A stretch of DNA of 64,000 bases from an uncultured Actinomycetes bacterium (GCA_902826025.1 CADEDH010000003.1:21743-85742), one strand, 5' to 3'; positions 11,766 through 43,332 are shown, numbered from the stretch's first letter. The notes: generated by a model from the sequence alone, not told the origin. Translations and numbers: made by a program.

Positions 11766-11769
11766 CCCG

Positions 11770-19669: not shown

Positions 19670-20385
19670 GCGGCCTGGTGGTGGACGACGTGCGGGTGGC
19701 CTACGGCCGCACTGAGGTGCTGTTCGGGGTGTCGCTCGAGGTACCCGACGGCTCGCTGGTGTGCGTGATGGGCCGCAACGGCGTGGGCAAGACCACCCTG
19801 CTCAATACGATCGCCGGTCTGCTGAAACCCCAGAGTGGCTCGGTGAGCTTCGACGGGAGCAGCCTGGCCGGGGTCGGGGCCCACCAGCGGGCCCGGCTCG
19901 GCCTCGGGTACGTACCCCAGGGCCATGCCGTGTTCCCCCAGCTCACCACGAGGGAGAACCTGCAGGTGGTGATGGAGCGCCAGGGCCGCCGGGCCCGGGC
20001 CGCCTCGCTGCGCCAGCAGGACCTCGACGAGGTGCTCGACTTGTTCCCCGCCTTGACCACACTGATGAACCGCCCGGCCGGGCTGCTCAGCGGCGGACAG
20101 GCCAAGCAGCTCGCCATCGCCCGGGCCCTCGTCACCGGGCCCCGCCTGCTCGTGCTCGACGAGCCGACCGAGGGCATCCAGCCATCGATCATCCACGAGA
20201 TCGAGGACACGATCGCCAAGCTCCACGCCGCCATCGGGATGACCATCCTGCTGGTCGAGCAGTACGTGGAGTTCGCTCTCCGTCTGGCCGACCGTTACGC
20301 CGTGCTCGACGCCGGCCGGGTGGTGTCGACCGGACTGACGTCCGAGGCCGACCCCTCGGCCTTCGCCGAGCTCATGGCTGTTTGA
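19666..20385 (+). CDS. urtE: urea ABC transporter ATP-binding protein
   Basis: 239 aa. It has Walker A GRNGVGKTT, the signature LSGGQAKQLAIARAL and Walker B LLVLDEP. There is a 4-nt overlap with urtD. Confidence 0.9.
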   Translation: MSGLVVDDVRVAYGRTEVLFGVSLEVPDGSLVCVMGRNGVGKTTLLNTIAGLLKPQSGSVSFDGSSLAGVGAHQRARLGLGYVPQGHAVFPQLTTRENLQVVMERQGRRARAASLRQQDLDEVLDLFPALTTLMNRPAGLLSGGQAKQLAIARALVTGPRLLVLDEPTEGIQPSIIHEIEDTIAKLHAAIGMTILLVEQYVEFALRLADRYAVLDAGRVVSTGLTSEADPSAFAELMAV

Positions 20386-20421
20386 GTCGACCGTGAAACC
20401 AACTGACGCGAAAGGACCCGC

Positions 20422-20724
20422 GTGCACCTGACCCAGCACGAGCAGGAGCGCCTGCTCATCACGGTGGCCGCCATGGTGGCCCGCGACCGAAGGGACCGGG
20501 GCCTGCGGCTCAACCACCCCGAGACGGTGGCCCTGCTGTCGTCGTGGGTGATGGAAGGAGCCCGCGACGGGCGCACCGTGGCCGACCTCATGGACGCCGG
20601 CCGGCGGGTGCTGACCCGGGACGACGTGATGGACGGCGTGGCCGACCTGATCCCCGAGATCCAGATCGAGGCCACGTTCCCCGACGGCACCAAGCTCGTC
20701 ACCCTGCACGGACCCATCTCATGA
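20422..20724 (+). CDS. ureA: urease subunit gamma
   Basis: 100 aa. (M)[33 protein letters not shown] is the canonical UreA N-terminus. The start codon is GTG. Confidence 0.95.
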
Positions 20725-21140
20725 GCGGCGGGGAAGGTATGTTCAGCCCGATCGGCCCGCCGGGGCAGGTCATCGTGGGCGAGGGTGCCGTCGAGCTGTT
20801 CGCCGGTCGCCCGGTCATCACGCTCGTGGTGGCGAACACGGGCGACCGGCCGGTGCAGGTGGGGTCCCACTACCACTTCGCCGAGGCCAACCCGGCCCTG
20901 TCCTTCGACCGGGGCGCGGCCTGGGGTCACAAGCTGGCCATCCCGGCCGGCACCTCGGTGCGCTTCGAGCCCGGCATCGAGCGTGAGGTCGATCTCGTGC
21001 CCCTGGCCGGGGCCCGGGTGGTGCCCGGCCTGCGGGGGGCGGCGGCCGGGCCCCTGGGCGACGGCCCGGGCGTCAATGCCGGCGCCGGCAACCGCCCGTG
21101 GGATCACCATCCAGGGTCCGAGCGAGGAGAGGTGCACTGA
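20721..21140 (+). CDS. ureB: urease subunit beta (with C-terminal extension)
   Basis: The ATG overlaps the ureA stop. The core is [30 protein letters not shown] Gly/Pro-rich tail of about 35 aa follows the conserved core. Confidence 0.9.
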
Positions 21141-22861
21141 TGGAGATCGACCGGCGACGCTACGCCCAGCTCTACGGGCCCACCACCGGCGACCGGGTTC
21201 GCCTGGCCGACACCGACCTCTTCATCGAGGTCACCTCTGACGCCTGCGCCGGCGGCGACGAGGCCGTGTTCGGTGGGGGCAAGGTGATCCGGGAGTCGAT
21301 GGGGCAGTCCCGGGCCACCCGGGCCGAGGGCACGCCCGATCTGGTGATCACCGGTGCCGTCATCCTCGACCATTGGGGGGTGGTGAAGGCCGACGTCGGC
21401 ATCCGCGACGGGCGCATCGTGGGTATCGGCCGGGCCGGCAACCCCGACATCACCGACGGGGTGCACCCGGCCCTGGTCATCGGGCCGTCCACCGAGATCC
21501 TGGCCGGCAACGGCAAGATCCTCACCGCCGGGGCCATCGACTCCCACGTCCACCTGATCTGTCCCCAGATCCTCGACACCGCCCTGGCCTCCGGCATCAC
21601 CACCGTGATCGGGGGCGGTACCGGGCCCGCCGAAGGCACCAAGGCCACCACCGTCACCCCCGGGGCCTGGCACACGGCGATGATGCTGCGGGCCATGGAC
21701 TCGTGGCCGATCAACGTGGCCCTGTTGGCCAAGGGCAACACGGTGTCGCCCGAGGCGCTGCGGGAGCAGTTGGCCGGCGGGGCGTCGGGGTTCAAGCTCC
21801 ACGAGGACTGGGGAACCACCCCGGCCGTGATCGACGCCTGCCTCACCGTGTGCGACGAGCAGGGGGTGCAGGTGGCGATCCACACCGACACCCTCAACGA
21901 GGCCGGCTACGTGGAGGCAACGCTGGCCGCCATCGGGGGCCGGTCGATCCACACGTACCACACCGAGGGCGCAGGCGGCGGCCACGCTCCCGACATCATC
22001 ACCGTGGTGTCGCAGCCCAACGTGCTGCCGTCGTCGACCAACCCCACCCGACCCCACACGATCAACACGCTCGACGAGCACCTCGACATGTTGATGGTGT
22101 GCCACCACCTCTCCCCCACCATCCCCGAAGACCTGGCCTTCGCCGAGAGCCGGATCCGGCCCTCCACCATGGCGGCCGAGGACGTCCTCCACGACCTGGG
22201 GGCGATCTCCATGATCGGGTCCGACGCCCAGGCCATGGGTCGGGTGGGTGAGGTGATCCTTCGCACCTGGCAGACGGCGCACGTGATGAAGCGGCGGCGG
22301 GGTTCGCTGCCCGGCGACAACGGCTCGGACAACGGGGCCGATAACCTGCGGGCCCGGCGCTACGTGGCCAAGTACACGATCTGCCCCGCCCTGGCCCACG
22401 GGCTGGCCGGTGAGGTGGGGTCGGTCGAGGTGGGCAAGTTGGCCGACCTCGTGCTGTGGGACCCCGCCTTCTTCGCCGTGCGGGCCCACGTGGTGGTGAA
22501 GGGCGGGGCGATCGCCTGGGCCCAGATGGGCGACGCCAACGCCTCCATCCCCACGCCCCAGCCGATCCTGCCCCGACCCATGTTCGGCGCCGCCCCCGGG
22601 GCGGCTCCCGGCTTGAGCCTCACGTTCGTGGCCCCGCTGGCGCTGGAGTCTGGTGATCTGGCCGACCGCCTCGGCGTGGCCAAGCCCCTGGTGGCGGTGG
22701 CCGACTGCCGCCGGGTGGCCAAGGCTGATCTGCCGGAGAACACCGCCGTTCCCTCGGTCACCGTCAGCCCCGACACGTTCGCCGTGCGGATCGACGGGGA
22801 GCTGATCGAGCCCAGCCCGGCGACGGAGCTGCCCATGGCCCAGCGCTACTTCCTCTTCTAG
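21140..22861 (+). CDS. ureC: urease subunit alpha
   Basis: Starts [27 protein letters not shown]. Motifs seen: [20 protein letters not shown] (carbamylated Lys context) and MVCHHL. The start overlaps the ureB stop by 1 nt. Confidence 0.95.
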
Positions 22862-22888
22862 GGCCGTGGCTGCCGGAATGAGCATCCG

Positions 22889-23602
22889 ATGAGCGCCGAC
22901 GGCGGTGCGGCCGCCCTCCTGCTCCTGGCCGACGGGCGGTTCCCGGCCGGTGGCCATGTGCATTCAGGTGGGGCCGAGGCGGCCCTGCTCGACGGACGGC
23001 TGACCGGGCCCGACAGCCTGGCCGCTTATGCCGTGGGCCGGCTCCACACCACCGGCCTGGTTGATGCCGCCCTCACCGCCGCGGTGGTAGTGGGCCTGGC
23101 TGCGGACTGCGATCAGCACGGTTGCGGTCCGGGACGGACCCTGCGCCTGCTCGACGCCGAGGCTGAGGCCAGGATGGCTATGGCCCCGCTGCGGGAGTCG
23201 TCGCGCCGGTTGGGCCGCCAGCTGACCCGGGCCGCCGCCGGCTGCTGGCCCGGACCGACGCTGGTGGCGGTGGCCGCCCTCCACCCCGATGGGCCCCATC
23301 AGTCCGTGGCCCTGGGGGCGGTGGCCAACGCCGCCGGAATCGGAGCGCTCGACGCCGCCCGGCTCAGCCTCCACCACACGCTCACCACACCGCTGCAGGC
23401 CGCCCTCCGGCTGGGCGGGCTCGACCCGTTCGCCGTGGCCGCCCTGGCCGCCTCCCTGGCCCCCGTGGTCGACGAGGTGGCGGCCGAAGCGGCGCAGGCC
23501 GCCACCGGCCCGATCGACGAGTTGCCCTGCCTGGTGGGGCCGTTCACCGAGATCGCCGCGGTGGAGCACGCGGCCCGCACCGACCGGTTGTTCGCCACCT
23601 GA
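22889..23602 (+). CDS. ureF: urease accessory protein UreF
   Basis: 237 aa. LLLLADGRFPAGGHVHSGGAEAA is the typical UreF N-terminus. Its position between ureC and ureG fits. Confidence 0.85.
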   Translation: MSADGGAAALLLLADGRFPAGGHVHSGGAEAALLDGRLTGPDSLAAYAVGRLHTTGLVDAALTAAVVVGLAADCDQHGCGPGRTLRLLDAEAEARMAMAPLRESSRRLGRQLTRAAAGCWPGPTLVAVAALHPDGPHQSVALGAVANAAGIGALDAARLSLHHTLTTPLQAALRLGGLDPFAVAALAASLAPVVDEVAAEAAQAATGPIDELPCLVGPFTEIAAVEHAARTDRLFAT

Positions 23603-23633
23603 CCTCACTCGTCCCGACCTCCACTGCTGACCG

Positions 23634-24410
23634 ATGCAAAGGACCGACCCTGTGCCTCCTCACGACCCGGGCCATGCCCACGACCACGATCACGACCCAC
23701 TGGCCGCCGGGCGATGGCCCGGTCTGAGCGGACCAACCGGCGACGGGGGCGGCCCGGCCCGGCGCAGCCTGCGAGTGGGTATCGGCGGGCCGGTGGGGAG
23801 CGGCAAGACCGAGCTGGTGTCGTGCCTGTGCCGGGCCTTCGCCTCCGACCTCGGGCTGGCCGTGGTCACCAACGACATCTTTACCCGGGAGGACGCCGCC
23901 ATCCTGGAGCGCAAGGGGGTGCTGCCGACCGAACGGATCAGGGCCGTGCAGACGGGCTGCTGCCCTCACACCGCCATCCGGGACGACATCAGCGAGAACC
24001 TCGACACGGTGGAACAGCTCGAAGCCCGCTTCGATCCCGACCTGGTGCTGGTGGAGAGCGGGGGCGACAACCTGACCGCCACCTTCAGCTACGCCCTGGT
24101 GGACGTGCAGATCTTCGTGATCGACGTGTCGGGGGGAGACAAGGTGCCCCGCAAGGGTGGCCCCGGCATCACCCGCTCCGACCTGCTCGTGGTCAACAAG
24201 ACCGACCTGGCCGAGATGGTGGGGGCCGACCTGGGGGTGATGGCCCGCGACGCCGAGGCGGGGCGGGGCGGGCGACCCACGGCGTTCGTGTCGCTCCGGC
24301 TCGACCCGCGGGCCGAGCCGGTGGCGGCCTGGATCCGGGGCCTGCTGGCCGATCGGGCCGCCGCCTCCCTCGCCCTCGGCACCGCCACCGCGCCGGCTGG
24401 CGGCGCATGA
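23634..24410 (+). CDS. ureG: urease accessory GTPase UreG (His-rich N-terminus)
   Basis: 258 aa. It has the P-loop GGPVGSGKT and the CPH motif ([11 protein letters not shown]). The N-terminal region [12 protein letters not shown] is His-rich. Confidence 0.95.
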
Positions 24411-27990: not shown

Positions 27991-28025
27991 GATATTGACA
28001 CGTCAACCTCTTGATGGGAGTCGGG

Positions 28026-28814
28026 ATGAGCGACAGCGCTGAGACCACCCTGCCGGCCGTGTTCGTGGGCCATGGGAGCCCGATGAACGCCCTGCAGTCC
28101 AACCGCTACACCGAGGCGTGGGCCGCCTTCGGGGCCGCCCTCCCCCAGCAGCCCCGGGCCATCCTCGCCATCTCAGCCCACTGGTACATCAACGCCTCGG
28201 CCGTCACCGCCATGACGGCACCGAACACGATCCACGACTTCTTCGGCTTTCCCGAGGAACTGTTCGCCTTTCGGTATCCGGCCCCCGGCGACCCGGACCT
28301 GGCCCAGGAGATCGCCGAGGTGGTGAAACCCACGTGGATCGGAATGGACCGTGACTCGTGGGGAATCGACCACGGCACGTGGTCGGTGCTGGCCCACCTC
28401 TACCCGGCGGCCGACGTCCCCGTGCTGCAGCTCTCGGTCGACGCCTCCAAGTCGCCCGACTACCACGTGGCCCTGGGGGCGGCCCTCGCCCCCCTGCGCC
28501 AGCGGGGTGTGTTGATCGTGGCCAGCGGCAACGTGGTTCACAATCTCCCCGCCCTCGACCCGAACCGGCCCGACACCGGGTTCGACTGGGCCGAGGAGTT
28601 CGACGAAGCCGCCCGCACGCTCATGGCCCAGGCCCCGGGAGACATCGCTGCGCTCAGCCGGCACCAGCGCTACTCGCTGGCCGCCCCCACGCCCGACCAT
28701 CTCCTCCCGCTCTACTATTTGGGCGGGCTGGCCGCCGCCGCCGGCGAGACCGGCCGGGTGCTGATCGACGGCTACGCCCTGGGCTCGTTGTCGATGACCA
28801 CCCACGCCATCTGA
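28026..28814 (+). CDS. 4,5-DOPA dioxygenase extradiol-like (LigB superfamily, YgiD type)
   Basis: Starts MSDSAETTLPAVFVGHGSPMNAL, preceded by a GGGAG RBS. The track ORF starts 15 nt earlier. About 260 aa. Confidence 0.8.
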   Translation: MSDSAETTLPAVFVGHGSPMNALQSNRYTEAWAAFGAALPQQPRAILAISAHWYINASAVTAMTAPNTIHDFFGFPEELFAFRYPAPGDPDLAQEIAEVVKPTWIGMDRDSWGIDHGTWSVLAHLYPAADVPVLQLSVDASKSPDYHVALGAALAPLRQRGVLIVASGNVVHNLPALDPNRPDTGFDWAEEFDEAARTLMAQAPGDIAALSRHQRYSLAAPTPDHLLPLYYLGGLAAAAGETGRVLIDGYALGSLSMTTHAI

Positions 28815-31883: not shown

Positions 31884-32339
31884 ATGGCGAAGCGAGACGA
31901 CAAGCGAGAGTCGGCCAAGGGGAGCACCACCGATCTGCCGTCGACCCTGGACCGGTCGGATGAGCACGCCCAGGCCATCTGGCGGGAGACCCACGACTCG
32001 GCAGTGGAGAGCTACGGGGAGGGCGAGCGGGCCCATCGCACCGCCTTCTCCGCCCTCAAGCACAGCTACGAGAAGGTTGGCGACCACTGGGAGCCCAAGG
32101 AGCACAAGGGCCCATCGGACGCCCAGGCCGCTCGCAGCGGAGCCGCTGCCCGGCGAGGTGGTGACCGTCGGGGAGCCACGGCGGGCGGGGTCGACGCCAA
32201 CGCCACCAAGGCCCACCTGATGGACCTGGCCCGCCGCCTCGAGGTCAAGGGCCGGTCGTCGATGACCAAGCAGGAGCTGGTGGAGGCGATCGACAAGGCC
32301 AACCGCCGCGAGACTGCGGCTGCCCGCCGCGCCGGCTGA
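31884..32339 (+). CDS. ChaB-like domain protein with Rho-N-like C-terminal domain
   Basis: 151 aa. LPSTLDRSDEHAQAIWRETHDSAVESYGEGERAHRTAFSALKHSYEKVGDHW is ChaB-like. LMDLARRLEVKGRSSMTKQELVEAI is Rho_N/SAP-like. Confidence 0.65.
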   Translation: MAKRDDKRESAKGSTTDLPSTLDRSDEHAQAIWRETHDSAVESYGEGERAHRTAFSALKHSYEKVGDHWEPKEHKGPSDAQAARSGAAARRGGDRRGATAGGVDANATKAHLMDLARRLEVKGRSSMTKQELVEAIDKANRRETAAARRAG

Positions 32340-32388: not shown

Positions 32389-32616
32389 ATGGCCACGGCG
32401 CACGATACGACCATGACCGCTCTGCTCGACACCCGCACCCCCGCCACCACCGCCCGCATGACCATCCCGCCCGCCGCGCCGGTGACGGCCAAGGGCTGGC
32501 ACGACGACCCCTGGCACCACCACGAGCTCCGCTACCACGACGGCGCCGGCTGGACCGGGCATGTCACCCACTTCGGTCCCGTCCCCTGCGCCGGCTGCCG
32601 CGGCAGCGCCCGCTGA
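32389..32616 (+). CDS. DUF2510-like small protein
   Basis: 75 aa. GWHDDPWHHHELRYHDGAGWTGHV matches the GW.DP....RYWDG..WT pattern of DUF2510. Confidence 0.5.
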   Translation: MATAHDTTMTALLDTRTPATTARMTIPPAAPVTAKGWHDDPWHHHELRYHDGAGWTGHVTHFGPVPCAGCRGSAR

Positions 32617-32684: not shown

Positions 32685-33638
32685 TCATCGCGACGCAGAA
32701 GCGGCGGCCGCGGCGGCGGCCGATCGCAGCTCGGCCACCAGCTCGGCCGGGGTCAGATCGGGGCAGCCGGCCTGGGTTCGGAACCAACGCAGGATCTCCC
32801 ACTCGCTGTCGGCCTCAGGCCCCGCCTGCAGATACCGGATCAGCTCCCGGCTCCCCGCCTGGTGGACGAAGTTCCACGTGACCGATAGCGAGTCCTCCAG
32901 CACCAGCACGTCGTGCAGCCAGCCCCGGGGGATGTAGATGAGGTCGCCGGGGTGAACCAGCCCCCGCAGGTCGGGCTCGGCCGCCAGGCGCCCCGAACCG
33001 TCGCCCCGGACATCGAGAAAGCCGCCGTAGGAGCTGGTGTCGTCACCGAGGTGGAGCTCTGCGGCCCGACCCGGTGCGTACAGCACAGCCTCCTTCACCC
33101 CGGCGAACTGGGCGACCACGGCATCGGTGCCGAACGGGTCGCGGTGGAGTCGGGTGCGGGCGCCCCGGGCCGCCACCAGGAGGCCCCGGTACGGGAAGCG
33201 ATCGGACACCGGATCACCACCGCCCACCGGTAGCACCAGGTCGTGGCGGGGCAGACAGGCCGGAGCGGCCCAGGTGTCGGCCATGCGGGCCAGGGCCTCG
33301 TCGCCCCAGGCCGCCTCCACGTCTCGCAGCCGGTTGTACCAGCGGACATAGGGGACCTCATCGCCGGGGTCGAGGAGACCCGGATCTCCCGGAACGCCAT
33401 CTCCCCTGGCGAACCAGTCGTCGAGGTAGTCGTCGAGGGTGGCGATGTCCTCCAGGTCGAACAAAGAGCCGTAGACCAGGGTGGCCAGGCCCCCGGCCCG
33501 GGCCCGGAGCCCCTGGGCCGTCCAGGCCTCCCGGTCGTAGCTGAGCCCCCGCACCACCACCGGCCGGCCGGGGGCCAGCCAGCGGCCAACGAACTCGTCG
33601 GGGCTGGGCATGTCGATCACGTCGAGTGGTGTGGTCAT
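32685..33638 (-). CDS. JmjC/cupin-8-like Fe(II)/2-oxoglutarate-type oxygenase
   Basis: The internal ATG (MTTPLDVIDMPSPDEFVGRWLAPGRPVVVRGL...) overlaps the stop of the synthetase by 4 nt. The candidate facial triad is HxD in TRLHRDPF plus His in YIPRGWLHDV. Confidence 0.75.
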   Translation of the reverse strand: MTTPLDVIDMPSPDEFVGRWLAPGRPVVVRGLSYDREAWTAQGLRARAGGLATLVYGSLFDLEDIATLDDYLDDWFARGDGVPGDPGLLDPGDEVPYVRWYNRLRDVEAAWGDEALARMADTWAAPACLPRHDLVLPVGGGDPVSDRFPYRGLLVAARGARTRLHRDPFGTDAVVAQFAGVKEAVLYAPGRAAELHLGDDTSSYGGFLDVRGDGSGRLAAEPDLRGLVHPGDLIYIPRGWLHDVLVLEDSLSVTWNFVHQAGSRELIRYLQAGPEADSEWEILRWFRTQAGCPDLTPAELVAELRSAAAAAAASASR

Positions 33639-36600
33639 GAGATCACCTGCAGTTCGTTGACAGACGAGTCGGGAAACGTGACCTGGCGCTGGCCCGCCGG
33701 TGGGGAGACCGGGCGGGCCGGGTTCCCCTGCCAATGGCCGCCCGACTCCACCGTGGTTCCCTTCATCACGAACGAGTCGGCGTCGATCACGCAGTGGTCG
33801 CCCAGCTCGGTGGCGTAGTGGACGAGGGCGGCGGGGCCCACGGTGCAGCCCGTTCCGAGGTGGACGCGGTCGGACTTGAACGTGCCGTCCTCCAGCGAGT
33901 GGGCCTGGAGCACGGCGCCGTGGTTGAGGCAGCAGTCGTCGCCGATGGCCACCAGGCCCGGCTCGGTGAGGCCGGCGCCGTCGTCGAACACCCGGGCCCC
34001 TACCTGGGCCCCCTGCAACCGCAGGAACCAGGGCTTGACCGGCGTCCCGTCGAACACCCGGAGGAAGGCGTTGTAGTTCAGCTTCCAGAAGCGCTCGTGG
34101 GCCCAGAAGCGGGGGTCGTAGAGCGAGCAGTACAGCGGCTGGACGGGCTGGAACCGCACCACGAGCCGCTCCAGGAGAACGGAGACGAGTGCGCCGCCCA
34201 CGACGGTGGTGGCAGCGGCCGCGGCCAGGGCCAGGGCCGTGGGCGCGAGGCCGGCACCGGGGCCGACCAGGTTCAGCGCCGCCGCCCCCGACCCCAGGGC
34301 CAGCACCGTCAACAGCCACCACCGAGCCAGGTACAACGCCATCGTCACCAGGTTGGACCGCAGCTTTCGGGCCAGCCGCTGTTCCAACAGGCCCGGCTGC
34401 TTGTAGAGGTCGAACAAGTGGTCCCGCTGCACCGAGCGGGGGATCTCGAACGCCGGCGATCCGAGGAGGCCCACCCCGGTGCGAACCGGGCCGTCGAGGG
34501 GGACCGCCGCCTTCGTGGCGATGAGACAGTTCGGGCCGACGGCGGCATCGGCCGGGTAGCGCACCACGTTGCCCAGGTAGGTGTCGGCCGGCACCGACAC
34601 CGCCCGGAGCCGGAACGAGGTGCCCGACACCTCCAGATTGGTCAACCGGAGCCCGTCGGACACCAGCGTGTTGCGGTTGAAGGTGCACAGGAAGGGGCTG
34701 TGATGGCGTTGGTCGACCCCGAAGTTGGACCCGGTCTGGGTGGCCTGGGACAAGTCGTAGCCCACCGCCGACAGCCAGCCGACGATCATCGCCGAGTCGC
34801 CGAAGACGGTGCACAAGAAGCGGTTGTTGCTGAAGCGGGCCAGGGCCCGGGCCGCCTGCCACCGCAGGCCGTGGAGCGGGTGCGACACCTCGGGGGCCAC
34901 CAGCGGCCGCAGCAGGCGGGGTACGACGAGCACGGTGGCGGCGGCGGTGACGAGGCTCGCCGCTTCGAGGGCCAGGGCGGCCAGACCGAGCCGCAGGGCC
35001 GTGCCCGCCGGGCCGCCGCCCGTGCCCAGCAGCGTCTCGGCCGAGAGGTCGAACCGGGCGGCCGCCGCCAGGGGGGCCAAGGAGGCAGGGAGAGTGACCA
35101 ACAGCAGCGACAGGATCTGGCCGAGGGTGAAGAGCGCCCGTTTCCGGGGTTCCACCGGTCGGGGTTCGCACCGGTCGAAGGTGGTGGCGCACGGCTCGGC
35201 CGGCGAGCCCTGCCACACCGTCCCGTCGGGCACCCGCTGGCCCGCCAGCAAGGCCGAGGCGGGGCCGAGCTGGGCCCCGGCGCCCACGGCCGTGCCCGGC
35301 GACAGCACGGTGCCGTCGCCCACCAGGGCCCCGGCGCCGATGGCTATGGGGCCGGGCCGCAGCCAACCGCCGATGGCCACGTAAGTGGCCAGCACCGCTT
35401 CGTGGCGGACTACGGCCCCGGCGCCGATCGAGACCAGGTCGGTGCACACAGGGGGTGGGGCCAGCACCACCGCCCCTGCCCCGACCCGGGTGCCGACGGC
35501 CCGCAGGTAGACGTTGTAGGCCGGAGTGCCGGCCAGCAGGACCATGGGGTTGAGGGTGACGGCCAGCCGGGCCACCCAGAACCGCAGGTAGGCGACGGTC
35601 CACAGCGGCACCGGCTCGTCCCGGAACCGGCCGACGGCCAGCCACTTGACCGCCACCAGGCCCACCACGGTGGCCAGCCACAGGCCGCCGCCGGCGGCGA
35701 CGAGCCGCAACCACGTGCCCACCGGCCCGGCCGGTTGGCCGAGGAGGCGGAAGGCCGCCAACCCGGCCATGGCCGACACCGCCAGGACCAGCAGCTGGAT
35801 CCCCACCTGGGCCACCCCCGTGGCCACATGGGCCGCTCGGCTCGGCACCCGCAGCGGGTGGGCGGGAACCGGCCCCGGATCGGCCGCCGGCGCCGGGGGC
35901 TCCGCCGACCGATCCGACCAACCGGCTGCCGCCGGCGACGCTGCCGGGGGCGGCGCCGTGTCGGTGGCCGGCGATGGTGGCAGCAAGGCGGCCAGGGCGG
36001 CGACGGTCGGATGCTGGTAGAGCTGTTTGAGGGTCAGCCGGCGGACGCCCAGCGTTGAGCGGAGCTCGGTGACGAATCGGGCCATGGTGAGCGAGTCGGC
36101 GCCCAGCTCGGCGAAGAAGTCGGCCTCCACCGACACGGCCGGCAGGTCGAGCACCTCGGCCAGGAGGCCGGCCAGGCGGGCCTCGGTCTCGGTCCTGGGC
36201 ACCACCAGGTCCACCTCGTCGGCCACGAACCGGCGGCCGGCCGGGGCGGGCAGGGCCGACCGGTCGGCCTTGCCACTGGCCAGGAGGGGGACCTCGGCGA
36301 TCGGCTCCAGCAGGGTCGGCACCATGTAGGCCGGCAGGCCCGCCCGCAGGGCGGCGTACACCGCGCCCAGGTCCATCTCCCCGCCGGACGTGGCCGGCGC
36401 CAACCAGGCGGCCAGCACCACCGAGCCGTCGGGCAGGGTGTGGGGGGCCACCACGGCGTTGCCCACCCCGGGCACGGCCCGGGCCGTCGCCTCGATCTCG
36501 CTCAGCTCGATCCGGTAGCCGCGGATCTTCACCTGGGTGTCGATCCGACCCAGGTACTCCACCTCGCCGTCGTCGGTGAGCCGGCCCAGGTCGCCGGTTC

Positions 36601-37804
36601 GGTACAGGCGTCGGCCCGGGTTGTCGGGCAGGCCCAGCACGTCGTCCACGAAGGCCGCCGCCGTCTGCTCGGGCCGGTTGAGGTACCCCTCGGCCACCCC
36701 GATGCCGCCCACGGTGATCTCCCCCACCTCGCCCCGGGGAACCGGACGGGCACCGCCGTCGGGATCGAGCAGGGCCACGGTGTAGGTGGGCAGGGGGCGT
36801 CCGATCGTGATCGGCCGCCCCGGAATCAGCTCGCCCCAGGTGGCGCTGACCGTGGTTTCGGTGGGTCCGTACAGGTTGAGCACCCGGCGCCCGGGCTCGA
36901 ACCACGGCCCGATCACGTCGGCCGGGCAGGCCTCCCCCGACACCAGCAGCAGGCGGAGCGCCGGCAGCGGGGGCCGCACCGTGGCCAGCACGGTGGGCAC
37001 GGTGGCCAGGGCCGTGATCCGCTGCTCGTCGAGGAACTGGCGCAGGTCGTCGGCCACCAGCTGGGCTCCGGGCGGAGCCGGCACCAGGGTGGCCCCGGCC
37101 ACCAGGGGAACCCAGATCTCCTCGAAGGCGTAGTCGAAGGCGATCGTGAGCCCCTGGTAGACCCGGTCGTCGGGACGGTAGCCGTAGAGGCCGGCGGCCA
37201 CCCGTACGAAGCTCACGATGCTCGACTGCCGGATCGGTACCCCCTTCGGCTGGCCGGTTGAGCCCGAGGTGTAGATCACGTAGCACTCGGGATCGGGGTC
37301 GGACGACGCCGAGGTGTATCCCCCACGGGAGCGGCGGGCGATCTCGGGCTGGGCCTGATCGAGGGCGACCACGGGCACGCCGGCCGATTCGAACCGCCCG
37401 GTGAGCTCCGAGACCGTCAGCACAGCGGCCGCCCCGCTGTCGGCCAGCAGGAACCGGAGCCGCTCGGGTGGGAACGACGCGTCGAGGGGCACCCAGGACA
37501 CCCCGATGCGAGACAGCGCCAGCACCGTGGCGTAGGCGTCGACCGACCGCCCGAGCAGCAGGGCCACCCGCTGGCCGGGGGTGATGCCGGCGTCGGTCAG
37601 GTGGTGGGCCAGCTGGTGGGAACGGCCCCGCAGCTCGGCGAAGCTGTATCCGATGCCGCCGTAGTCGACGGCCAGGCGGCGTCGGGCGCGCCGGCCCAGA
37701 GCGGCGCAGGTCTGGTCGAACAGGTCGTGTAACCGCTCACCGGCGAACCATGCCGTCGGGTGGTCGGGGTCGCCAACGAGCACCGACACCGACTCGCCGT
37801 TCAC
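33635..37804 (-). CDS. Pls-type (epsilon-poly-lysine-synthetase-like) membrane-embedded single-module NRPS: A-T-(TM pair + hexapeptide-repeat domain)x3
   Basis: The GTG start (VNGESVSVLVGDPD...) overlaps the aminotransferase stop (GTGA). Adenylation motifs seen: YVIYTSGSTGQPKGV, NLYGPTETT, YRTGDLG, GRIDTQVKIRGYRIELSEIE and SGKADR. The carrier domain is FFAELGADSLTMARF. Three soluble blocks rich in [LIV]G hexapeptide-like repeats follow, each flanked by hydrophobic helices. I saw no canonical C (HHxxxDG) or TE (GxSxG) domain. 1389 aa. Confidence 0.85.
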   Translation of the reverse strand: MNGESVSVLVGDPDHPTAWFAGERLHDLFDQTCAALGRRARRRLAVDYGGIGYSFAELRGRSHQLAHHLTDAGITPGQRVALLLGRSVDAYATVLALSRIGVSWVPLDASFPPERLRFLLADSGAAAVLTVSELTGRFESAGVPVVALDQAQPEIARRSRGGYTSASSDPDPECYVIYTSGSTGQPKGVPIRQSSIVSFVRVAAGLYGYRPDDRVYQGLTIAFDYAFEEIWVPLVAGATLVPAPPGAQLVADDLRQFLDEQRITALATVPTVLATVRPPLPALRLLLVSGEACPADVIGPWFEPGRRVLNLYGPTETTVSATWGELIPGRPITIGRPLPTYTVALLDPDGGARPVPRGEVGEITVGGIGVAEGYLNRPEQTAAAFVDDVLGLPDNPGRRLYRTGDLGRLTDDGEVEYLGRIDTQVKIRGYRIELSEIEATARAVPGVGNAVVAPHTLPDGSVVLAAWLAPATSGGEMDLGAVYAALRAGLPAYMVPTLLEPIAEVPLLASGKADRSALPAPAGRRFVADEVDLVVPRTETEARLAGLLAEVLDLPAVSVEADFFAELGADSLTMARFVTELRSTLGVRRLTLKQLYQHPTVAALAALLPPSPATDTAPPPAASPAAAGWSDRSAEPPAPAADPGPVPAHPLRVPSRAAHVATGVAQVGIQLLVLAVSAMAGLAAFRLLGQPAGPVGTWLRLVAAGGGLWLATVVGLVAVKWLAVGRFRDEPVPLWTVAYLRFWVARLAVTLNPMVLLAGTPAYNVYLRAVGTRVGAGAVVLAPPPVCTDLVSIGAGAVVRHEAVLATYVAIGGWLRPGPIAIGAGALVGDGTVLSPGTAVGAGAQLGPASALLAGQRVPDGTVWQGSPAEPCATTFDRCEPRPVEPRKRALFTLGQILSLLLVTLPASLAPLAAAARFDLSAETLLGTGGGPAGTALRLGLAALALEAASLVTAAATVLVVPRLLRPLVAPEVSHPLHGLRWQAARALARFSNNRFLCTVFGDSAMIVGWLSAVGYDLSQATQTGSNFGVDQRHHSPFLCTFNRNTLVSDGLRLTNLEVSGTSFRLRAVSVPADTYLGNVVRYPADAAVGPNCLIATKAAVPLDGPVRTGVGLLGSPAFEIPRSVQRDHLFDLYKQPGLLEQRLARKLRSNLVTMALYLARWWLLTVLALGSGAAALNLVGPGAGLAPTALALAAAAATTVVGGALVSVLLERLVVRFQPVQPLYCSLYDPRFWAHERFWKLNYNAFLRVFDGTPVKPWFLRLQGAQVGARVFDDGAGLTEPGLVAIGDDCCLNHGAVLQAHSLEDGTFKSDRVHLGTGCTVGPAALVHYATELGDHCVIDADSFVMKGTTVESGGHWQGNPARPVSPPAGQRQVTFPDSSVNELQVIS

Positions 37805-39090
37805 GCCGCCACCTCCCCGCATCCGGTGCCCACCAGTGGGCCGGCGGCCGTGCGGTGCACGACCTCGGCCACGATGCTCATGCCCTCGGCCAGCTGGACA
37901 TCGGGTGTGGTGAGGGGGGCCAGCACCTTCACCACCTGGTCGCGGGGTCCTGCCGTCTCGATCACCAGGCCCCGCTGGAAGCAGCCGGCGGTCACCGCCG
38001 CCGCCACCTCGGTGGTGCCCACGTCGAGTCCGGCCATCAGGCCCCGGCCCTTCACCCGCCACCCGGGGACCAGGCCGGCCAGCGGTTCGAGGACCGAGCG
38101 CACCAAGCGGGCCCGGCGGTCGACGTCGAGAGTGAGACGATCGTCGGACCAGAACTTCTCCAGAGCCACGGCGGCGGTCACGAAGGCCAGGTTGTTGCCC
38201 CGGAAGGTGCCGTTGTGCTCGCCCGGGCGCCACTGGTCGAGCTCGGGCCGCAGCAGCACCAGCGCCATGGGCAGCCCGAACCCGGAGATCGACTTGGACA
38301 GGGTGACAAGGTCGGGCACCACCCCGGTGCCCTCGAAGCTGAAGAACGGCCCGGTGCGCCCGCACCCGGCCTGGATGTCGTCCACGATCAGCAGGGCACC
38401 CACCCGGCGGGCCAGGTCGGCGATCCGCCGCAGCCAACCGGCCGAGGCCGGATTGAGGCCGCCCTCGCCCTGCACCACCTCCACCAGGAAGGCGGCGGGA
38501 GGGTCGAATCCGCTCGACGGGTCGTCGAGCACGGCCTCCAGCACGGCGGCGGTGTCGACGTCGGGGCCGAGGTAGCCGTCGTAGAAGGCCCGGGTGACGC
38601 CGCTCAGGGGCAGCGGACCGGAGGCGCCCCGGTGGTGGCTGTTCCCGGTGGCGGCCAGGGCGCCGAGGGTGACACCGTGGAACCCGTTGGTGAAGGCCAC
38701 CACGGTGGAGCGCCCGGTCACCTTTCGGGCCAGTTTGATCGCCGCCTCCACCGCGTTGGTGCCGGTGGGCCCGGTGAACTGCACCCGGTAGTCGAGGCCT
38801 CGGGGGCGGAGGATCAGCCGGTCGATCCGATCGAGGAACCGGTCCTTGGCCTCGGTCCGCAGGTCGAGGCCGTGGGTGATGCCCCCGGCGGTCAGGTGGG
38901 CCACGAGGGCGTCGGCCATGTCGGGGTCGTTGTGGCCGTAGTTGAGGGCGGAGCAACCGGCCAGGAAGTCGAGGTAGCGACGGCCGGTGTGGTCGAACAG
39001 CTCGCTGCCGCGGGCCGAGGTGAAGGTGGTGGGGAAGGTGCGGCAGTAGCTACGCACCTCCGACTCGATGGTCGGCTCGACGATGGTCAT
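37801..39090 (-). CDS. diaminobutyrate--2-oxoglutarate transaminase (class III PLP aminotransferase, EctB/Dat/PvdH type)
   Basis: 429 aa. The N-terminus ESEVRSYCRTFPTTFTSARGSELFDHTGRRYLDFLAGCSALNYGHN is typical of DABA aminotransferases. The PLP-Lys context is VTLSKSISGFGLPMA. A strong AGGAGG RBS is present. Confidence 0.85.
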   Translation of the reverse strand: MTIVEPTIESEVRSYCRTFPTTFTSARGSELFDHTGRRYLDFLAGCSALNYGHNDPDMADALVAHLTAGGITHGLDLRTEAKDRFLDRIDRLILRPRGLDYRVQFTGPTGTNAVEAAIKLARKVTGRSTVVAFTNGFHGVTLGALAATGNSHHRGASGPLPLSGVTRAFYDGYLGPDVDTAAVLEAVLDDPSSGFDPPAAFLVEVVQGEGGLNPASAGWLRRIADLARRVGALLIVDDIQAGCGRTGPFFSFEGTGVVPDLVTLSKSISGFGLPMALVLLRPELDQWRPGEHNGTFRGNNLAFVTAAVALEKFWSDDRLTLDVDRRARLVRSVLEPLAGLVPGWRVKGRGLMAGLDVGTTEVAAAVTAGCFQRGLVIETAGPRDQVVKVLAPLTTPDVQLAEGMSIVAEVVHRTAAGPLVGTGCGEVAA

Positions 39091-39413: not shown

Positions 39414-40334
39414 TCAGCTCCGAGGCCGGATGACGGCCAGCACGCACAGACCGGTGCTGGTGGCGCAGGGGCTGAGCGAGATCTCGACCGGTAGCTCGAC
39501 GCCATCGGACCGGAGGGCCACCAGATCGAGACCGGAGGCCACCGACCGGGGCACCGGATCGTCCACGTAGCGCTGGCGGCTGCGCATGTGATCCTCCCGC
39601 CAGCGGTGCGGTAGCAGCACCTCGATCGGGCGGCCGACGAGCTGGGCCGGCGTGTAGCCGAGCAGCTCGCACAGCCGCTCGTTGCACTGCAGGATCGTGC
39701 CGGTGCCGTCGACGGCCACGATGCCCTCGGACCCCGCCCCCAGCAGGGCCGACGCCATCTCGTCGGTCAGGAGGTGGCGGACGCCGTCGCCCGCCGCCCG
39801 AGCTTCGAAGATCCGTGAGAGGGCGAGAGCAGCGACGTCGGCCAGGGTACGGATGTAGTCGCGCTCGGGCTCGTCGAACACCGGTGGGCGGGAGAACGAC
39901 AGGGTGAACGCACCGAAGGGCCGGCCCCGGCCGAGCAGGGGGATGACCACCCAGCCCTGCGACGCCGGCGAGGCGAGGCGAAGGTCGGCGAAGCGTCGCA
40001 ACCCCTCCTCCCGGTTGGGGATCCAGATCTCCTCCGCCTCCCGGATCGCCTGGCATGCCGGGTTGGCCCGATCCAGGGGCATCGACTCGCGACCGGCGTC
40101 CTGCTCCATGCGCCGGATCGACCGGGCCGTCGTTCCCGCCGCCGCCACGGAGCGCACAACATCGCCGTCGACGAACAGCAGACCTACACCGGAGGCGTTC
40201 ATCCCGGCCATGCCCTGCTGTACCACGATCCGCGTGATCTCCTCCGGCCCGATCTCGGAGGTGAAAGCCCGGGCCATCATGGCCAGGCGCTCGTAGCGGT
40301 CTGCCCGCAAGTCGGCGTTCGAGGTCACGGGCAC
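39414..40334 (-). CDS. GAF-PAS sensor protein without recognisable output domain
   Basis: 306 aa. The N-terminal half is GAF-like (GVGLLFVDGDVV...WVVIPLLGRGRPFGAFTLSF). The C-terminal part is a PAS fold (GIVAVDGTGTILQCNERLCELLGYTPAQLVGRPIEVLLP...GVELPVEISLSP). Confidence 0.75.
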   Translation of the reverse strand: MPVTSNADLRADRYERLAMMARAFTSEIGPEEITRIVVQQGMAGMNASGVGLLFVDGDVVRSVAAAGTTARSIRRMEQDAGRESMPLDRANPACQAIREAEEIWIPNREEGLRRFADLRLASPASQGWVVIPLLGRGRPFGAFTLSFSRPPVFDEPERDYIRTLADVAALALSRIFEARAAGDGVRHLLTDEMASALLGAGSEGIVAVDGTGTILQCNERLCELLGYTPAQLVGRPIEVLLPHRWREDHMRSRQRYVDDPVPRSVASGLDLVALRSDGVELPVEISLSPCATSTGLCVLAVIRPRS

Positions 40335-40403
40335 CAGTATCGCAGGGACGAAGCCCGGCGGGTGGGAACAGGTAGCCCCCGCTGCTCGGCTGCGACCCGA
40401 CTG

Positions 40404-40745
40404 TCAGGACACCAGGCGGTGGACCACCGACAGGTTCCACGCCACCACGGCCAGGTAGTAGGTCAGGGCCAGATTGACCAGCAGCCTTGCCTCCCGGGAG
40501 CGGGCCGGGGCGTCGAGGATGCGTCGGCTCAGCAGAGCCAGCACCACCGCCTTCACCGCCACCACCAGCCACCATCGGTGCACGATGGGGGCCAGCACCG
40601 GGTTTCCCTCCGACCCCCCGAGCATCAGGAACCACACCGTGGTGGCCACGTCGGCCCCGTTCAGCACAGCCAGACCGCCGATGCCCCGCAGCCGCTGGGC
40701 CCGCACCCGCTCCACCAGATCCACGATGGCGTGGAGGGCCCCCAC
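40404..40745 (-). CDS. small polytopic membrane protein (DUF5658-like)
   Basis: Hydrophobic, with AVLNGADVATTVWFLMLGGSEGNPVLAPIV, which is the D..T......E.NP motif as I recall it for DUF5658. The start is uncertain: GTG at 40745 or GTG at 40820. Confidence 0.5.
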   Translation of the reverse strand: MGALHAIVDLVERVRAQRLRGIGGLAVLNGADVATTVWFLMLGGSEGNPVLAPIVHRWWLVVAVKAVVLALLSRRILDAPARSREARLLVNLALTYYLAVVAWNLSVVHRLVS

Positions 40746-40827
40746 CAGCTCACGGTGCTCGTCGTCCCGCCCCGCCCGCCGGACCGGGGGTGGCGGCCAG
40801 TTGCGGGGCTGTCCGGTCACGATCCGA

Positions 40828-43332
40828 TCACGGGCCGGCCTCGGCCAGCAGGAGGCCAGACGGGGCGGCACCCGCACCGGTCCACCACCGCTCGAGATCG
40901 GGCGCCGGCACGGGCCGGCTGAACAGATAGCCCTGGCCCAGCTTGCACACCATCTGTTCGAGCATCACCCGGGCGGTCACCGTCTCGACGCCTTCCGCCA
41001 CCACGTCGAGCTTCAAGCTCCGGCCCAGGTCGACGATCGCTCGCACCACGGTCTCGGCCGTGCGGTCCACCCCGAGGCCCTGGGTGAACGAGCGGTCGAT
41101 CTTCAGCTTGTCGAGGGGGAGGCTGGTGAGGTGACTGAGCGACGAGTGGCCGGTGCCGAAGTCGTCGATGGCCACCCGCATGTCCATGGCCCGGAGCTGG
41201 GCCATCACCGAGGCGGCGAGGCCGGCGTTGGCCATGATCGTGGTCTCGGTCAGCTCCACCTCCAACAGGTGGGCCGGGAGGCCGGCCGTGGCCAGCATGC
41301 GCCGGATGCGGGGCACGAGGTCGGCCTCGGTCAGGTTCCGGGCCGACACGTTCACCGCCACCCGCAGCGGGTGCCCGGCGCGGTACCAGGCGGCGGCCTG
41401 ATCGATGGCCAGCTCCAGCACCCGGTTGGTCAGGGGGTGGATGAGGTCGGTCCGCTCCGCCACCTCCACGAACTCGGCCGGCGGCACGGCGCCCCGTCCG
41501 GGATCGTCCCACCGGGCCAGGGCCTCCACCGCCACCAGGCGGCCCGTGGCCAGGTCGATCTGGGGCTGGTAGTGGAGCCGGATACCGCCGGCGTCGATGG
41601 CCGAGCGGAGGCGGGCCGCCATGGCCAGACGCTTCGGGCTGTAGTGATCGCGGTCGGCGGCGTACACCTCCACCCCGGTGTGGGCGGTCTTGGCGTTGTA
41701 CATGGCCACGTCGGCCCGGCGCAGCAGCTCGTCGCCGTCGAGCGGGGCGGTGGCCAGGGCGATGCCGATGCTGGCGTCGATGTCCACGTCGACCGACTGC
41801 ACGGCGTAGGGCGCCCGCAGGTGGTCGAGCACGAGGCGGGCCCGGTCGGCGGCGTCGATCTCACCCCGGGCCATGATCTGGAGCACGAACTCGTCGCCCC
41901 CCAGCCGGGCCAGCAGCTCGCCGCCCCGCAACACCGGCTGGAGGCGCTTGCCGATCTCCATGAGCAGCTTGTCGCCGCAGGCGTGGCCCAGGGTGTCGTT
42001 GACCTCCTTGAACCGCTCCAGGTCGATGAGCAGTACCGCCACCTCGGTGCCGGGGGCCACCGCCTCCAGATGACGGGTGAACAGCGTGCGGTTGGCCAGA
42101 CCGGTGAGCGGGTCGTGGGTGGCCTGGAACTCGAGGCTGGTCGACTCGGCCCGGAGCTCCTCGATCAGGGTCAGGTTCCGGGCGGCCACGGCGGCGTGGG
42201 CGCACAGGGTGCCGAAGATGCGGACGTCGTCGGCGTCGAAGTCCCGCACCGCACCGGCCCGGTCGCCCACCCCCAGGACGAGGAGGCTGCCATCGGCCAG
42301 GTGCAGGGGGCCGACGATGGCCTGGCCGACGCCGAGGGCGGCCAGCTCGTCGCCCCGCGGCCCGGCCGAACCGATCAGCTCCGGGCCGCCCCGGCTCACC
42401 CGAGCCGCCGTCGCCGTGTCGAAGGAGGTGAGGTCGGCCACCGTGGCTCCGCCGTGGCTGGTGAGCAGCGTGCGCCGACCCTCCGCCGGGCGGCACAGCC
42501 ATGCCTGCTCGGCGTGCATGACGTCGGCCACCCGGGCCAGCAGCCGACGGTCGAAGTCGCCGGTGGCCGTCTCGCGGCCCAGCTCCCGGGCGAAGCTGTC
42601 GAGGCGGAGCATGCTCCGGTAGCGGTTGGCCAGGCGGGCGAAGCGGTGGGTCAGGGCGACGGCGAACACGCCGAGGGGGATCAGCAGCCACACTTCGGCC
42701 GACGCGGCGTGCAGCTCGGTCGCCACGTGCAAGGCGTAGGACGAGTCGATGGCGGCCACCACCAGGGGCAGCCACACCCCCGACAGGAACGACCGGTCCC
42801 ACGAACGCTGGAACAGGCTGATGGCGATCGTCACCACCAGGCCGCCGATCAGGTCGGCCCCCACCACAGCCAGGGCCGTCACCGGCCACGCCCCCAGGCC
42901 CAGCCCCGGCGGTAGGCCCAGGGCGGCCATCAGCAGGCCCGCCAACAGGATCTCGATGGTGTGGGAAGTCAGGTTGACGGCCAACTTGGTGCCGCCCTGA
43001 CGGTGCACGCCGGCCAGCACCAGCAACGACGACACCACCCGGAGCAGCACAACGATCTGGAGCGGCAACAGCAGCAGCCCGATCACCAGCGGTACCGAGG
43101 TGAAGGTGAAGGTATGGGTGTCGTTGCGGAGCTCGATCTCCACCGACCACAGCTCGGCCCCGGCGTAGAGGGCCAGCACCAGCACCGCCACCACCCACGA
43201 TCCGATCGCCGGCACCATCGGGGCTGGCGGGGCGATCCCCAGGAGCAGCCCGCACAACGCCACCAGCACGGTGGCGAAGAGCTGGACGTGCAGAGGTCCG
43301 GCGTCGGTGGATCGAGGTGCCATGAGCCGCAC
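40828..43332 (-). CDS. membrane-bound GGDEF-EAL (diguanylate cyclase/phosphodiesterase) signalling protein
   Basis: 834 aa. The N-terminal domain has about 8 TM helices, followed by a GAF-like linker region. GGDEF elements are RLGGDEFVL and the upstream DLERFKEVNDTLGH. EAL elements are VEALARW, NVSARNL, ELTET and DDFGTGHSSLS. Confidence 0.9.
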   Translation of the reverse strand: MRLMAPRSTDAGPLHVQLFATVLVALCGLLLGIAPPAPMVPAIGSWVVAVLVLALYAGAELWSVEIELRNDTHTFTFTSVPLVIGLLLLPLQIVVLLRVVSSLLVLAGVHRQGGTKLAVNLTSHTIEILLAGLLMAALGLPPGLGLGAWPVTALAVVGADLIGGLVVTIAISLFQRSWDRSFLSGVWLPLVVAAIDSSYALHVATELHAASAEVWLLIPLGVFAVALTHRFARLANRYRSMLRLDSFARELGRETATGDFDRRLLARVADVMHAEQAWLCRPAEGRRTLLTSHGGATVADLTSFDTATAARVSRGGPELIGSAGPRGDELAALGVGQAIVGPLHLADGSLLVLGVGDRAGAVRDFDADDVRIFGTLCAHAAVAARNLTLIEELRAESTSLEFQATHDPLTGLANRTLFTRHLEAVAPGTEVAVLLIDLERFKEVNDTLGHACGDKLLMEIGKRLQPVLRGGELLARLGGDEFVLQIMARGEIDAADRARLVLDHLRAPYAVQSVDVDIDASIGIALATAPLDGDELLRRADVAMYNAKTAHTGVEVYAADRDHYSPKRLAMAARLRSAIDAGGIRLHYQPQIDLATGRLVAVEALARWDDPGRGAVPPAEFVEVAERTDLIHPLTNRVLELAIDQAAAWYRAGHPLRVAVNVSARNLTEADLVPRIRRMLATAGLPAHLLEVELTETTIMANAGLAASVMAQLRAMDMRVAIDDFGTGHSSLSHLTSLPLDKLKIDRSFTQGLGVDRTAETVVRAIVDLGRSLKLDVVAEGVETVTARVMLEQMVCKLGQGYLFSRPVPAPDLERWWTGAGAAPSGLLLAEAGP

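Follow-up and report, generated by a model that had tools for sequence, protein, structure and literature searches.

The 64,000-nucleotide stretch of DNA analysed here (the window; CADEDH010000003.1:21743-85742 of assembly GCA_902826025.1, from an uncultured Actinomycetes bacterium) carries on its minus strand three overlapping genes, the central one of which encodes a synthetase with an adenylation (A) domain, a carrier (T) domain and a long C-terminal extension. This extension, the C-terminal ~740 residues of the 1389-residue A-T synthetase (33635-35990), is the subject of this analysis. The gene upstream encodes a transaminase and its TGA stop overlaps the GTG start of the synthetase (GTGA); likewise, the TGA stop of the synthetase is overlapped by the ATG start of an oxygenase gene (ATGA), an arrangement that implies translational coupling. 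The three genes and the features of the synthetase outside its membrane and soluble blocks are as follows.

37801 to 39090, minus strand: EctB-type L-2,4-diaminobutyrate--2-oxoglutarate transaminase, 429 amino acids (TIGR02407, NF006733)
33635 to 37804, minus strand: complete synthetase coding sequence, 1389 amino acids plus stop (open reading frame, start context)
36269 to 37690, minus strand: adenylation domain, residues 39-512 (Pfam AMP-binding, 245.9 bits; TIGR01733, 392.9 bits)
35981 to 36178, minus strand: carrier (T) domain, residues 543-608 (Pfam PP-binding, 52.3 bits)
35840 to 35980, minus strand: Pro/Ala-rich linker of 47 residues from the T domain to the first transmembrane helix, residues 609-655 (from the sequence)
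33638 to 33691, minus strand: C-terminal tail of the synthetase, residues 1372-1389, predicted to be disordered (predicted local distance difference test, pLDDT, below 50); overlaps the start of the next gene
32685 to 33638, minus strand: Cupin_8/JmjC-type Fe(II)/2-oxoglutarate oxygenase, 317 amino acids (Pfam Cupin_8, E 6.5e-11)

The synthetase starts at a GTG (37804) with a GGAGG seven nucleotides upstream, inside a longer open reading frame (33635-38956) that begins earlier, and residues are numbered here from that GTG. Its sequence is identical to that of a 1389-residue database protein (P0001). All of the peptide strings quoted in an initial annotation, which had been made from the DNA sequence alone, occur in the minus-strand translation of 33635-38956, and the serine of the GADSL motif that it had placed near 36092-36094 is the phosphopantetheine-attachment residue Ser571, whose codon occupies exactly these positions. 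Pfam matches in the synthetase are AMP-binding, AMP-binding_C, PP-binding and Hexapep, with no match to a Condensation or Thioesterase domain. The NCBIfam model for the terminal domain of the Pls/PosA family, TIGR02353, scores 534.7 bits against a curated cut-off of 423.1, and the match runs from residue 665 to residue 1363 and over positions 2-695 of the 695 in the model.

The Pls/PosA family is curated and has many members. Compared with 5.8 billion proteins, the synthetase gave thousands of homologues, more than 100 of which bear the name Pls/PosA, and wherever the source gives a name it is that of this family. The closest homologues are 80-82% identical, one of them from an Acidimicrobiales metagenome-assembled genome (MAG); next come proteins with ~54% identity, mostly from Alphaproteobacteria, and then many actinomycete proteins at 41-50%. 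For the 740-residue C-terminal part alone, an exhaustive HMMER search of clusters at 50% identity yielded 534 cluster representatives at E<=1e-30 and 1757 at E<=1e-10. In four proteins of 1362-2309 residues (P0239, P0258, P0284 and P0302) the Pls-type terminal domain lies near the N-terminus and is followed by several hundred to ~1500 further residues, showing that other architectures exist.

These matches make it very probable that the synthetase belongs to the Pls/PosA family of cationic homopoly(amino acid) synthetases and that the region encodes its C-terminal polymerisation domain; the enzyme probably makes poly-2,4-diaminobutyrate (poly-Dab). An enzyme that does not polymerise, and instead hands one aminoacyl group over from the T domain to a lipid or some other acceptor in the envelope, could be imagined, given that hexapeptide acyltransferases normally transfer once and that the product is predicted here from the genes. 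Such an enzyme is nevertheless very improbable, in that all characterised enzymes with this terminal domain, which make polymers of lysine (Lys), ornithine (Orn), Dab, diaminopropionate (Dap) or beta-lysine (beta-Lys), polymerise iteratively, and the TIGR02353 score lies above the cut-off over the full length of the model.

Compared by sequence with all chains in the PDB, the C-terminal 784 residues had no match at E<=1, so a prediction of the fold was needed. Kyte-Doolittle windows of 19 residues at or above 1.6 lie solely downstream of the carrier domain, with none in the A-T half, and the hydrophobic stretches form six segments in three pairs. An AlphaFold2 model of residues 650-1389, built with 107 aligned homologues (mean pLDDT 94.8; predicted template modelling score, pTM, 0.93), has long helices at residues 656-689, 694-723, 886-917, 931-968, 1139-1180 and 1186-1215, and each pair of these is followed by three short helices and a run of short strands (residues 791-871, 1032-1121 and 1285-1365). 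The resulting parts, three hairpins and three soluble blocks (C1 to C3), are these.

35636 to 35839, minus strand: transmembrane hairpin 1, helices at residues 656-689 and 694-723 (hydropathy, AlphaFold2, loop without Lys/Arg)
35180 to 35635, minus strand: soluble block C1, residues 724-875, three short helices and a predicted left-handed beta-helix, ending WQGSPAEP (AlphaFold2, Pfam Hexapep, hhalign with LacA)
34901 to 35149, minus strand: transmembrane hairpin 2, helices at residues 886-917 and 931-968 (hydropathy, AlphaFold2, loop charge)
34430 to 34900, minus strand: soluble block C2, residues 969-1125 (separate model, Foldseek, conservation)
34160 to 34390, minus strand: transmembrane hairpin 3, helices at residues 1139-1180 and 1186-1215 (hydropathy, AlphaFold2, loop charge)
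33707 to 34159, minus strand: soluble block C3, residues 1216-1366, helices and a predicted beta-helix, ending WQGNPARP (AlphaFold2, hhalign with LacA)

The order along the chain is hence A domain, T domain and three transmembrane hairpins, each followed by one soluble block. The loops within the three helix pairs contain 0, 1 and 0 Lys and Arg residues and the flanks contain 2-6, a distribution that fits hairpins with both ends in the cytoplasm, on the side of the A and T domains. When the model was compared by Foldseek with PDB entries to April 2026, the top matches of the whole domain were maltose, galactoside and serine O-acetyltransferases and a sugar N-acetyltransferase (E ~1e-5, probability 1.0), and no match covered more than one block. 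The middle block modelled separately (residues 970-1125, pLDDT 93.3) found as its first match the maltose O-acetyltransferase 3hjj, with a TM-score of 0.63-0.65 and E 1.6e-5 over ~185 alignment columns including gaps, and therefore the whole of C2, helices as well as beta-helix, appears to resemble one subunit of a LacA/Maa-type enzyme. Left-handed beta-helix domains are predicted for all three soluble blocks, and in the models each has the predicted fold of a single LacA/Maa-type subunit, that is, N-terminal helices followed by the beta-helix.

The initial annotation had described hydrophobic helix pairs alternating with soluble blocks, and had proposed that these form an acyltransferase-like rather than a condensation-domain-like platform in the membrane. 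Both parts of this description agree with the results: hydropathy and AlphaFold2 each place membrane helices in three pairs with a soluble block after each, the structural matches are to acetyltransferases, and the Pfam matches include neither a condensation nor a thioesterase domain. The predicted beta-helices also agree with the published model of PosA (PMC10522769), and alignment of the region to an unrelated domain, which together with a lack of helices or of the beta-helix fold had been named beforehand as refuting the proposal, was not seen. The reading of the region as a membrane-tethered hexapeptide acyltransferase is correct and has already been published: the architecture was described for Pls in 2008, and the pseudo-trimer of beta-helices was modelled for PosA in 2023.

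It is useful to set the window enzyme beside these two systems. In the description by Yamanaka et al. (2008), Pls, the epsilon-poly-L-lysine synthetase of Streptomyces albulus, has six transmembrane helices that surround three soluble domains in tandem, and it works iteratively on a free acceptor (PMC9205021, PMC10522769). The window enzyme shares with it a single A-T module with neither condensation (C) nor thioesterase (TE) domain, six transmembrane helices in three pairs, and three tandem soluble domains, and the Pls mechanism, iterative with a free acceptor and a T-bound donor, is the one proposed for it here. The two differ in their specificity codes (DYEALSLVSK in the window, DAESIGTVVK in Pls), in the precursor gene, which in the window is a Dab transaminase, in the host, Acidimicrobiales-like as opposed to Streptomyces, and in length, the window protein being the longer at 1389 residues. 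Pls has about 1319 residues. AlphaFold and RoseTTAFold models of PosA, the delta-poly-L-ornithine synthetase of Acinetobacter baumannii, show three five-turn left-handed beta-helices atop six bent helices, packed as in sugar-nucleotide acyltransferases, and its authors suggest that the three "C domains" form one domain (PMC10522769). PosA falls under the same curated family model as the window enzyme and shares its Q-x-H-x-x-E-D motif in block 3 and its G-[SN]-P-A block endings; however, its code is DMEHNGTVSK, and its middle block is hexapeptide-like in sequence whereas that of the window enzyme is not.

To compare the soluble blocks with each other, block profiles were cut from a 109-sequence family alignment and aligned profile to profile with hhalign. 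C1 matches C3 with a probability of 99.6% (E 4.7e-25), C1 matches C2 with 94% (E 1e-7) and C2 matches C3 with 92% (E 6e-7), all three aligning in register, and by these profiles the blocks are paralogues, homologous along their length. Each also ends in G-[SN]-P-[AF] (WQGSPAEP in C1, LLGSPAFEIPR in C2, WQGNPARP in C3). The autocorrelation of Leu, Ile and Val at a lag of six residues is 0.37 in C1 and 0.40 in C3 and 0.00 in C2, and the Hexapep match (31.8 bits against a cut-off of 27) falls in blocks 1 and 3. The [LIV]-G-x4 periodicity that the initial annotation had ascribed to the soluble blocks is thus found in blocks 1 and 3 but not in block 2; likewise, its three hexapeptide-repeat domains are recognisable in sequence for C1 and C3, whereas for C2 only the predicted fold gives a beta-helix. 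In left-handed beta-helix acyltransferases the imperfect hexapeptide repeat reads [LIV]-[GAED]-x2-[STAV]-x. The view of the middle block as the most divergent, also from the initial annotation, was justified.

Divergence of the middle block is accompanied by strong conservation among orthologues. Mean identity to the window protein is 0.64 for the C2 beta-helix, which makes it the best-conserved segment of the entire synthetase, 0.56 for C3, 0.54 for the A domain and 0.51 for C1; it falls to 0.28-0.35 in the transmembrane pairs and to 0.28 in the Pro/Ala linker, the least conserved part of the protein, the length of which may set the reach of the carrier domain. Conserved motifs of C2 are FGDS, QTGSNFG, SDGL..N, GN..YP, NCL.ATK and LLGSPAFEIPRS. 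C2 is not decaying; it is a paralogue that has diverged and is nevertheless strongly constrained. The suggestion that it controls chain length is not supported, as nothing here speaks in its favour; in Pls this control has been assigned to the linkers that join the transmembrane helices (review PMC9205021).

The resemblance to LacA/Maa-type enzymes (Escherichia coli LacA; Bacillus anthracis Maa, 3hjj) allows a candidate catalytic residue to be named. In addition to the predicted fold, which matches that of each window block, the two share a beta-helix that ends in G-x-P-A. When E. coli LacA was aligned to the block profiles by hhalign, it matched C3 with a probability of 97% (E 7.7e-11), C1 with 96.5% (E 8e-10) and C2 with 75.6%, the last over the final coils only. 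In the alignment with C3, whose invariant residues are H1236-E-R, H1302-S-L-E-D-G and H1329-Y, His1302 (in LQAHSLEDG; codon 33899-33901) pairs with His115 of the TGHPV motif of LacA, which is the catalytic base of the galactoside acetyltransferase. The equivalent positions are Tyr808 in C1 (35381-35383) and Asn1056 in C2 (34637-34639), so that a His is present in C3 only. All three are strongly conserved: the position of His1302 is occupied by His in all of the 109 homologues and in 113 of the 115 cluster representatives that cover it, that of Tyr808 is Tyr in 104 of 109, and that of Asn1056 is Asn in all 109. In block 3 of PosA, which has been characterised experimentally, the equivalent motif reads QTHLFED (PMC10522769, supplement). 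In the AlphaFold2 model of the window protein, His1302 opens a beta-hairpin that interrupts the beta-helix, as the His-bearing loop of LacA does.

Because only block 3 keeps the LacA-type His, we infer from the alignments one composite active site in which His1302 would act and blocks 1 and 2 would serve as pseudo-subunits that shape the grooves for acceptor and pantetheine. The family as a whole may conceivably work through this single LacA-like His, with blocks 1 and 2 non-catalytic. The obvious alternative treats C1-C3 as three separate condensation domains, each with its own active site, and block 2 as specialised for chain length; it draws on the homology of the three blocks, on the invariant residues that every block has of its own, and on the strong conservation of block 2, which implies some specific role. 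We nonetheless think it unlikely, since blocks 1 and 2 have Tyr and Asn in place of the His, AlphaFold2 predicts the 740 residues to pack tightly into one unit (pTM 0.93), the PosA model was read as a single domain (PMC10522769), and chain length in Pls was mapped to the linkers and not to C2 (PMC9205021). A further consideration tells against three sites. In free hexapeptide acyltransferases such as LacA, LpxA and GlmU the active sites lie between subunits. With respect to LacA/Maa, the composite site would differ in that the "subunits" are fused in one chain and split by transmembrane hairpins, that one of the three keeps the His, that the proposed donor is a carrier-domain thioester and not acetyl-CoA, and that the proposed reaction is iterative amide formation.

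The main text of the PosA paper does not single out a catalytic residue in the terminal domain (PMC10522769), and beyond that paper we found in the literature no newer structure or catalytic-residue study of the Pls C-terminal domain. The proposal for His1302 may hence be a small addition to published knowledge, and as the sole LacA-type His among the three blocks this residue offers a concrete mutational handle on the mechanism. An older mutational study of Pls (Kito et al. 2013, cited in PMC9205021) may already cover this proposal.

The nature of the monomer can be approached through the A domain and the coupled transaminase. A fixed GrsA offset for the code positions does not hold in this A domain; the specificity code was read instead by motif anchoring on V-P-T, calibrated on homologues for which it returns the L-Dab code known from the literature, DFECLSAVTK, and is D-Y-E-A-L-S-L-V-S-K. 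Published codes are DAESIGTVVK for Lys, DMEHNGTVSK for Orn, DFECLSAVTK for L-Dab, DFECLSCVSK for D-Dab, DFEYVGTVTK for Dap and DGESVSVVNK for beta-Lys (PMC10522769, supplementary table 2), and Asp1 and Glu3 are diagnostic of diamino-acid activation (PMC10522769). The window code keeps both and is nearest to the Dab codes, matching that for D-Dab at 7 of 10 positions and that for L-Dab at 6 of 10. It shares the core D-x-E-x-L-S-x-V-x-K with PddA of Streptoalloteichus hindustanus and with the L-Dab enzyme of Streptomyces celluloflavus. The code of most homologues is DFECLS[V/A]VTK, most of those at 41-56% identity have exactly the PddA or S. celluloflavus code, and the closest nearly all have Dab-type codes, although these statistics are indicative only, as the regular expression used for the codes fails on ~30% of homologues and misreads P0003.

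The transaminase scores 573.2 bits with TIGR02407 (cut-off 552.2) and 611 bits with NF006733, and relatives of the synthetase carry the same transaminase beside it. Neither ectA nor ectC was found beside the EctB-type gene or among the scanned genes of the window, and the transaminase appears to be dedicated to precursor supply, not to ectoine synthesis. Known poly-Dab synthetase clusters, like the window, hold a diaminobutyrate--2-oxoglutarate transaminase; they differ in that the window has, among its scanned genes, neither a PddB racemase nor a pathway-specific aspartate kinase and has a Cupin_8 gene coupled downstream instead (PMC8225329). Because of the A-domain code and the translationally coupled transaminase, the monomer is, as judged from sequence, most probably L-2,4-diaminobutyrate and the product poly-Dab. 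The synthetase extends the Pls/PosA family to an Acidimicrobiales-like lineage, with a probable poly-Dab product.

Two other products deserve mention. That the enzyme is a polylysine synthetase would be compatible with its overall architecture and with the NCBIfam model, both of which are the same in Pls, but it is extremely improbable: the Lys code, DAESIGTVVK, has Ala where the window has Tyr at position 2 and Ser-Ile-Gly where it has Ala-Leu-Ser at positions 4-6, the coupled upstream gene makes diaminobutyrate and not lysine, and Dab-type codes are found in nearly all of the closest homologues. A gamma-poly-D-Dab product, as made by PddA of Streptoalloteichus hindustanus, is closer to hand, with a Ser at code position 9 that the D-Dab enzyme shares (the L-Dab enzyme has Thr) and a PddC-like diaminobutyrate transaminase adjacent. 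In the poly-D-Dab cluster, however, the gene in translational coupling with that of the synthetase is pddB, which encodes a DapF-like racemase (PMC8225329); the genes coupled here encode EctB and Cupin_8, and no DapF-like racemase occurs among the scanned genes of the 64-kb window. The lack of that coupled gene makes the L-Dab polymer the likelier of the two and the D-Dab polymer improbable.

Taken with L-Dab as the monomer, the composite site suggests the following scheme. C1-C3 would pack as a single-chain pseudo-trimer at the cytoplasmic face, tethered by the six helices, and the phosphopantetheine arm of the T domain would bring in the aminoacyl thioester much as acyl-CoA reaches the free acetyltransferases. 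The thioester would be attacked by the side-chain amine of a free monomer or of a growing, non-covalently held chain, with His1302 of block 3 as general base and one composite site instead of three. Iteration would give an isopeptide polymer that exits the cell, and with L-2,4-diaminobutyrate supplied by the co-translated EctB-type transaminase the product would be of the gamma-poly-Dab type. Cationic polymers with isopeptide bonds attract practical interest as antimicrobials and preservatives.

It is also worth considering the oxygenase that is coupled to the synthetase. Its HxD...H triad (H165, D167 and H242) and K182 do not vary among 38 homologues, no NCBIfam model covers it, and the nearest solved structures are those of JMJD6 and JMJD5. 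Both of these enzymes hydroxylate basic residues in peptides. The order transaminase, synthetase, Cupin_8 is kept in the Acidimicrobiales MAG (L001), which is syntenic with the window across the whole neighbourhood, in Roseovarius aestuarii and on another metagenomic contig, and the cassette recurs in Acidimicrobiales, Alphaproteobacteria and Crenothrix; an Amycolatopsis cluster without Cupin_8 consists of aspartate kinase, synthetase and transaminase. Where the cassette is alphaproteobacterial or metagenomic, Cupin_8 is directly followed by a gene for a 4'-phosphopantetheinyl transferase (10193-10885 in L002, 10157-10786 in L003).

A profile scan for Cupin_8, with one genome per species and 80 loci kept, found a Pls-type terminal domain immediately upstream of the Cupin gene at 19 of the 80. 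At about 20 others, among them loci of Lysobacter, Pseudoalteromonas and Granulosicoccus, an EctB-type gene lies directly upstream of the Cupin gene, with ordinary adenylation domains of nonribosomal peptide synthetases (NRPS) nearby and no Pls-type domain; in Lysobacter enzymogenes, for example, the order is a C-A-T-C NRPS, an ABC transporter, EctB, Cupin_8 and an RND pump. Because EctB-Cupin_8 pairs also occur at loci without a Pls-type domain, the oxygenase seems to track the supply of Dab and not the polymerase. Our literature search found no characterised Cupin or JmjC enzyme that acts on Dab, nor a paper on this oxygenase, and that it hydroxylates Dab or Dab residues is a guess. It is conceivable, though we put this forward tentatively and as the less likely outcome, that the EctB-synthetase-Cupin_8 cassette makes an undescribed cationic homopolymer, for example a hydroxylated poly-diaminobutyrate, in which case the substrate of the oxygenase would be Dab that is free or bound to the T domain, or else the finished polymer. 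If so, it would be a general Dab-modifying tailoring enzyme that also serves ordinary NRPS clusters. The architecture of the synthetase itself has been described before, and only its conserved Cupin_8 partner could point to something new, as a marker of either a new tailored cationic polymer or a new Dab-modifying reaction.

Several observations weigh against a plain poly-Dab synthetase with a composite active site. The code differs from both Dab codes at positions 2 (Tyr for Phe), 4 (Ala for Cys) and 7 (Leu for Ala or Cys), so that the substrate is assigned by an inexact fit, and neither a pathway-specific aspartate kinase nor a phosphopantetheinyl transferase was found among the scanned genes of the window. 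Given the coupled Cupin_8 gene, the product may be something other than plain poly-Dab. In the PDB, neither the sequence search nor Foldseek found an experimental structure of a Pls-type terminal domain, and it is from the pTM, the PosA paper and the alignment with LacA that we infer the pseudo-trimer packing and the position of His1302 at an interface.

Around the operon, within which scans for promoters and terminators and an Rfam scan found nothing, lie genes of varied function. Directly upstream (39414-43332, minus strand) are genes for GAF-PAS, DUF5658 and GGDEF-EAL proteins, which stand in the same order in the Acidimicrobiales MAG (L001) and may form a regulatory neighbourhood linked to c-di-GMP. 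Convergent to the operon is a gene for a 75-residue DUF2510 protein (32389-32616, plus strand), followed by one for a ChaB/Rho_N protein (31884-32339), and both are present in the related MAG. Genes for aromatic-compound catabolism lie at 6292-14363 and 28011-28814 and encode two LigB-type extradiol dioxygenases, a LigXa-like Rieske oxygenase, an Amidohydro_2 protein, an RraA-like aldolase, a luciferase-like monooxygenase and a flavin monooxygenase. Between these two stretches, at 15309-24410 on the plus strand, genes for a urea-type ABC transporter (Peripla_BP_5, permease, ATPase) precede the urease genes ureC, ureF and ureG. An Rfam match to 5_ureB_sRNA (51.9 bits; 21290-21581, minus strand) lies antisense within the gene for the urease alpha subunit (21098-22861, plus strand), and most likely reflects conservation of the coding sequence, not a real sRNA.

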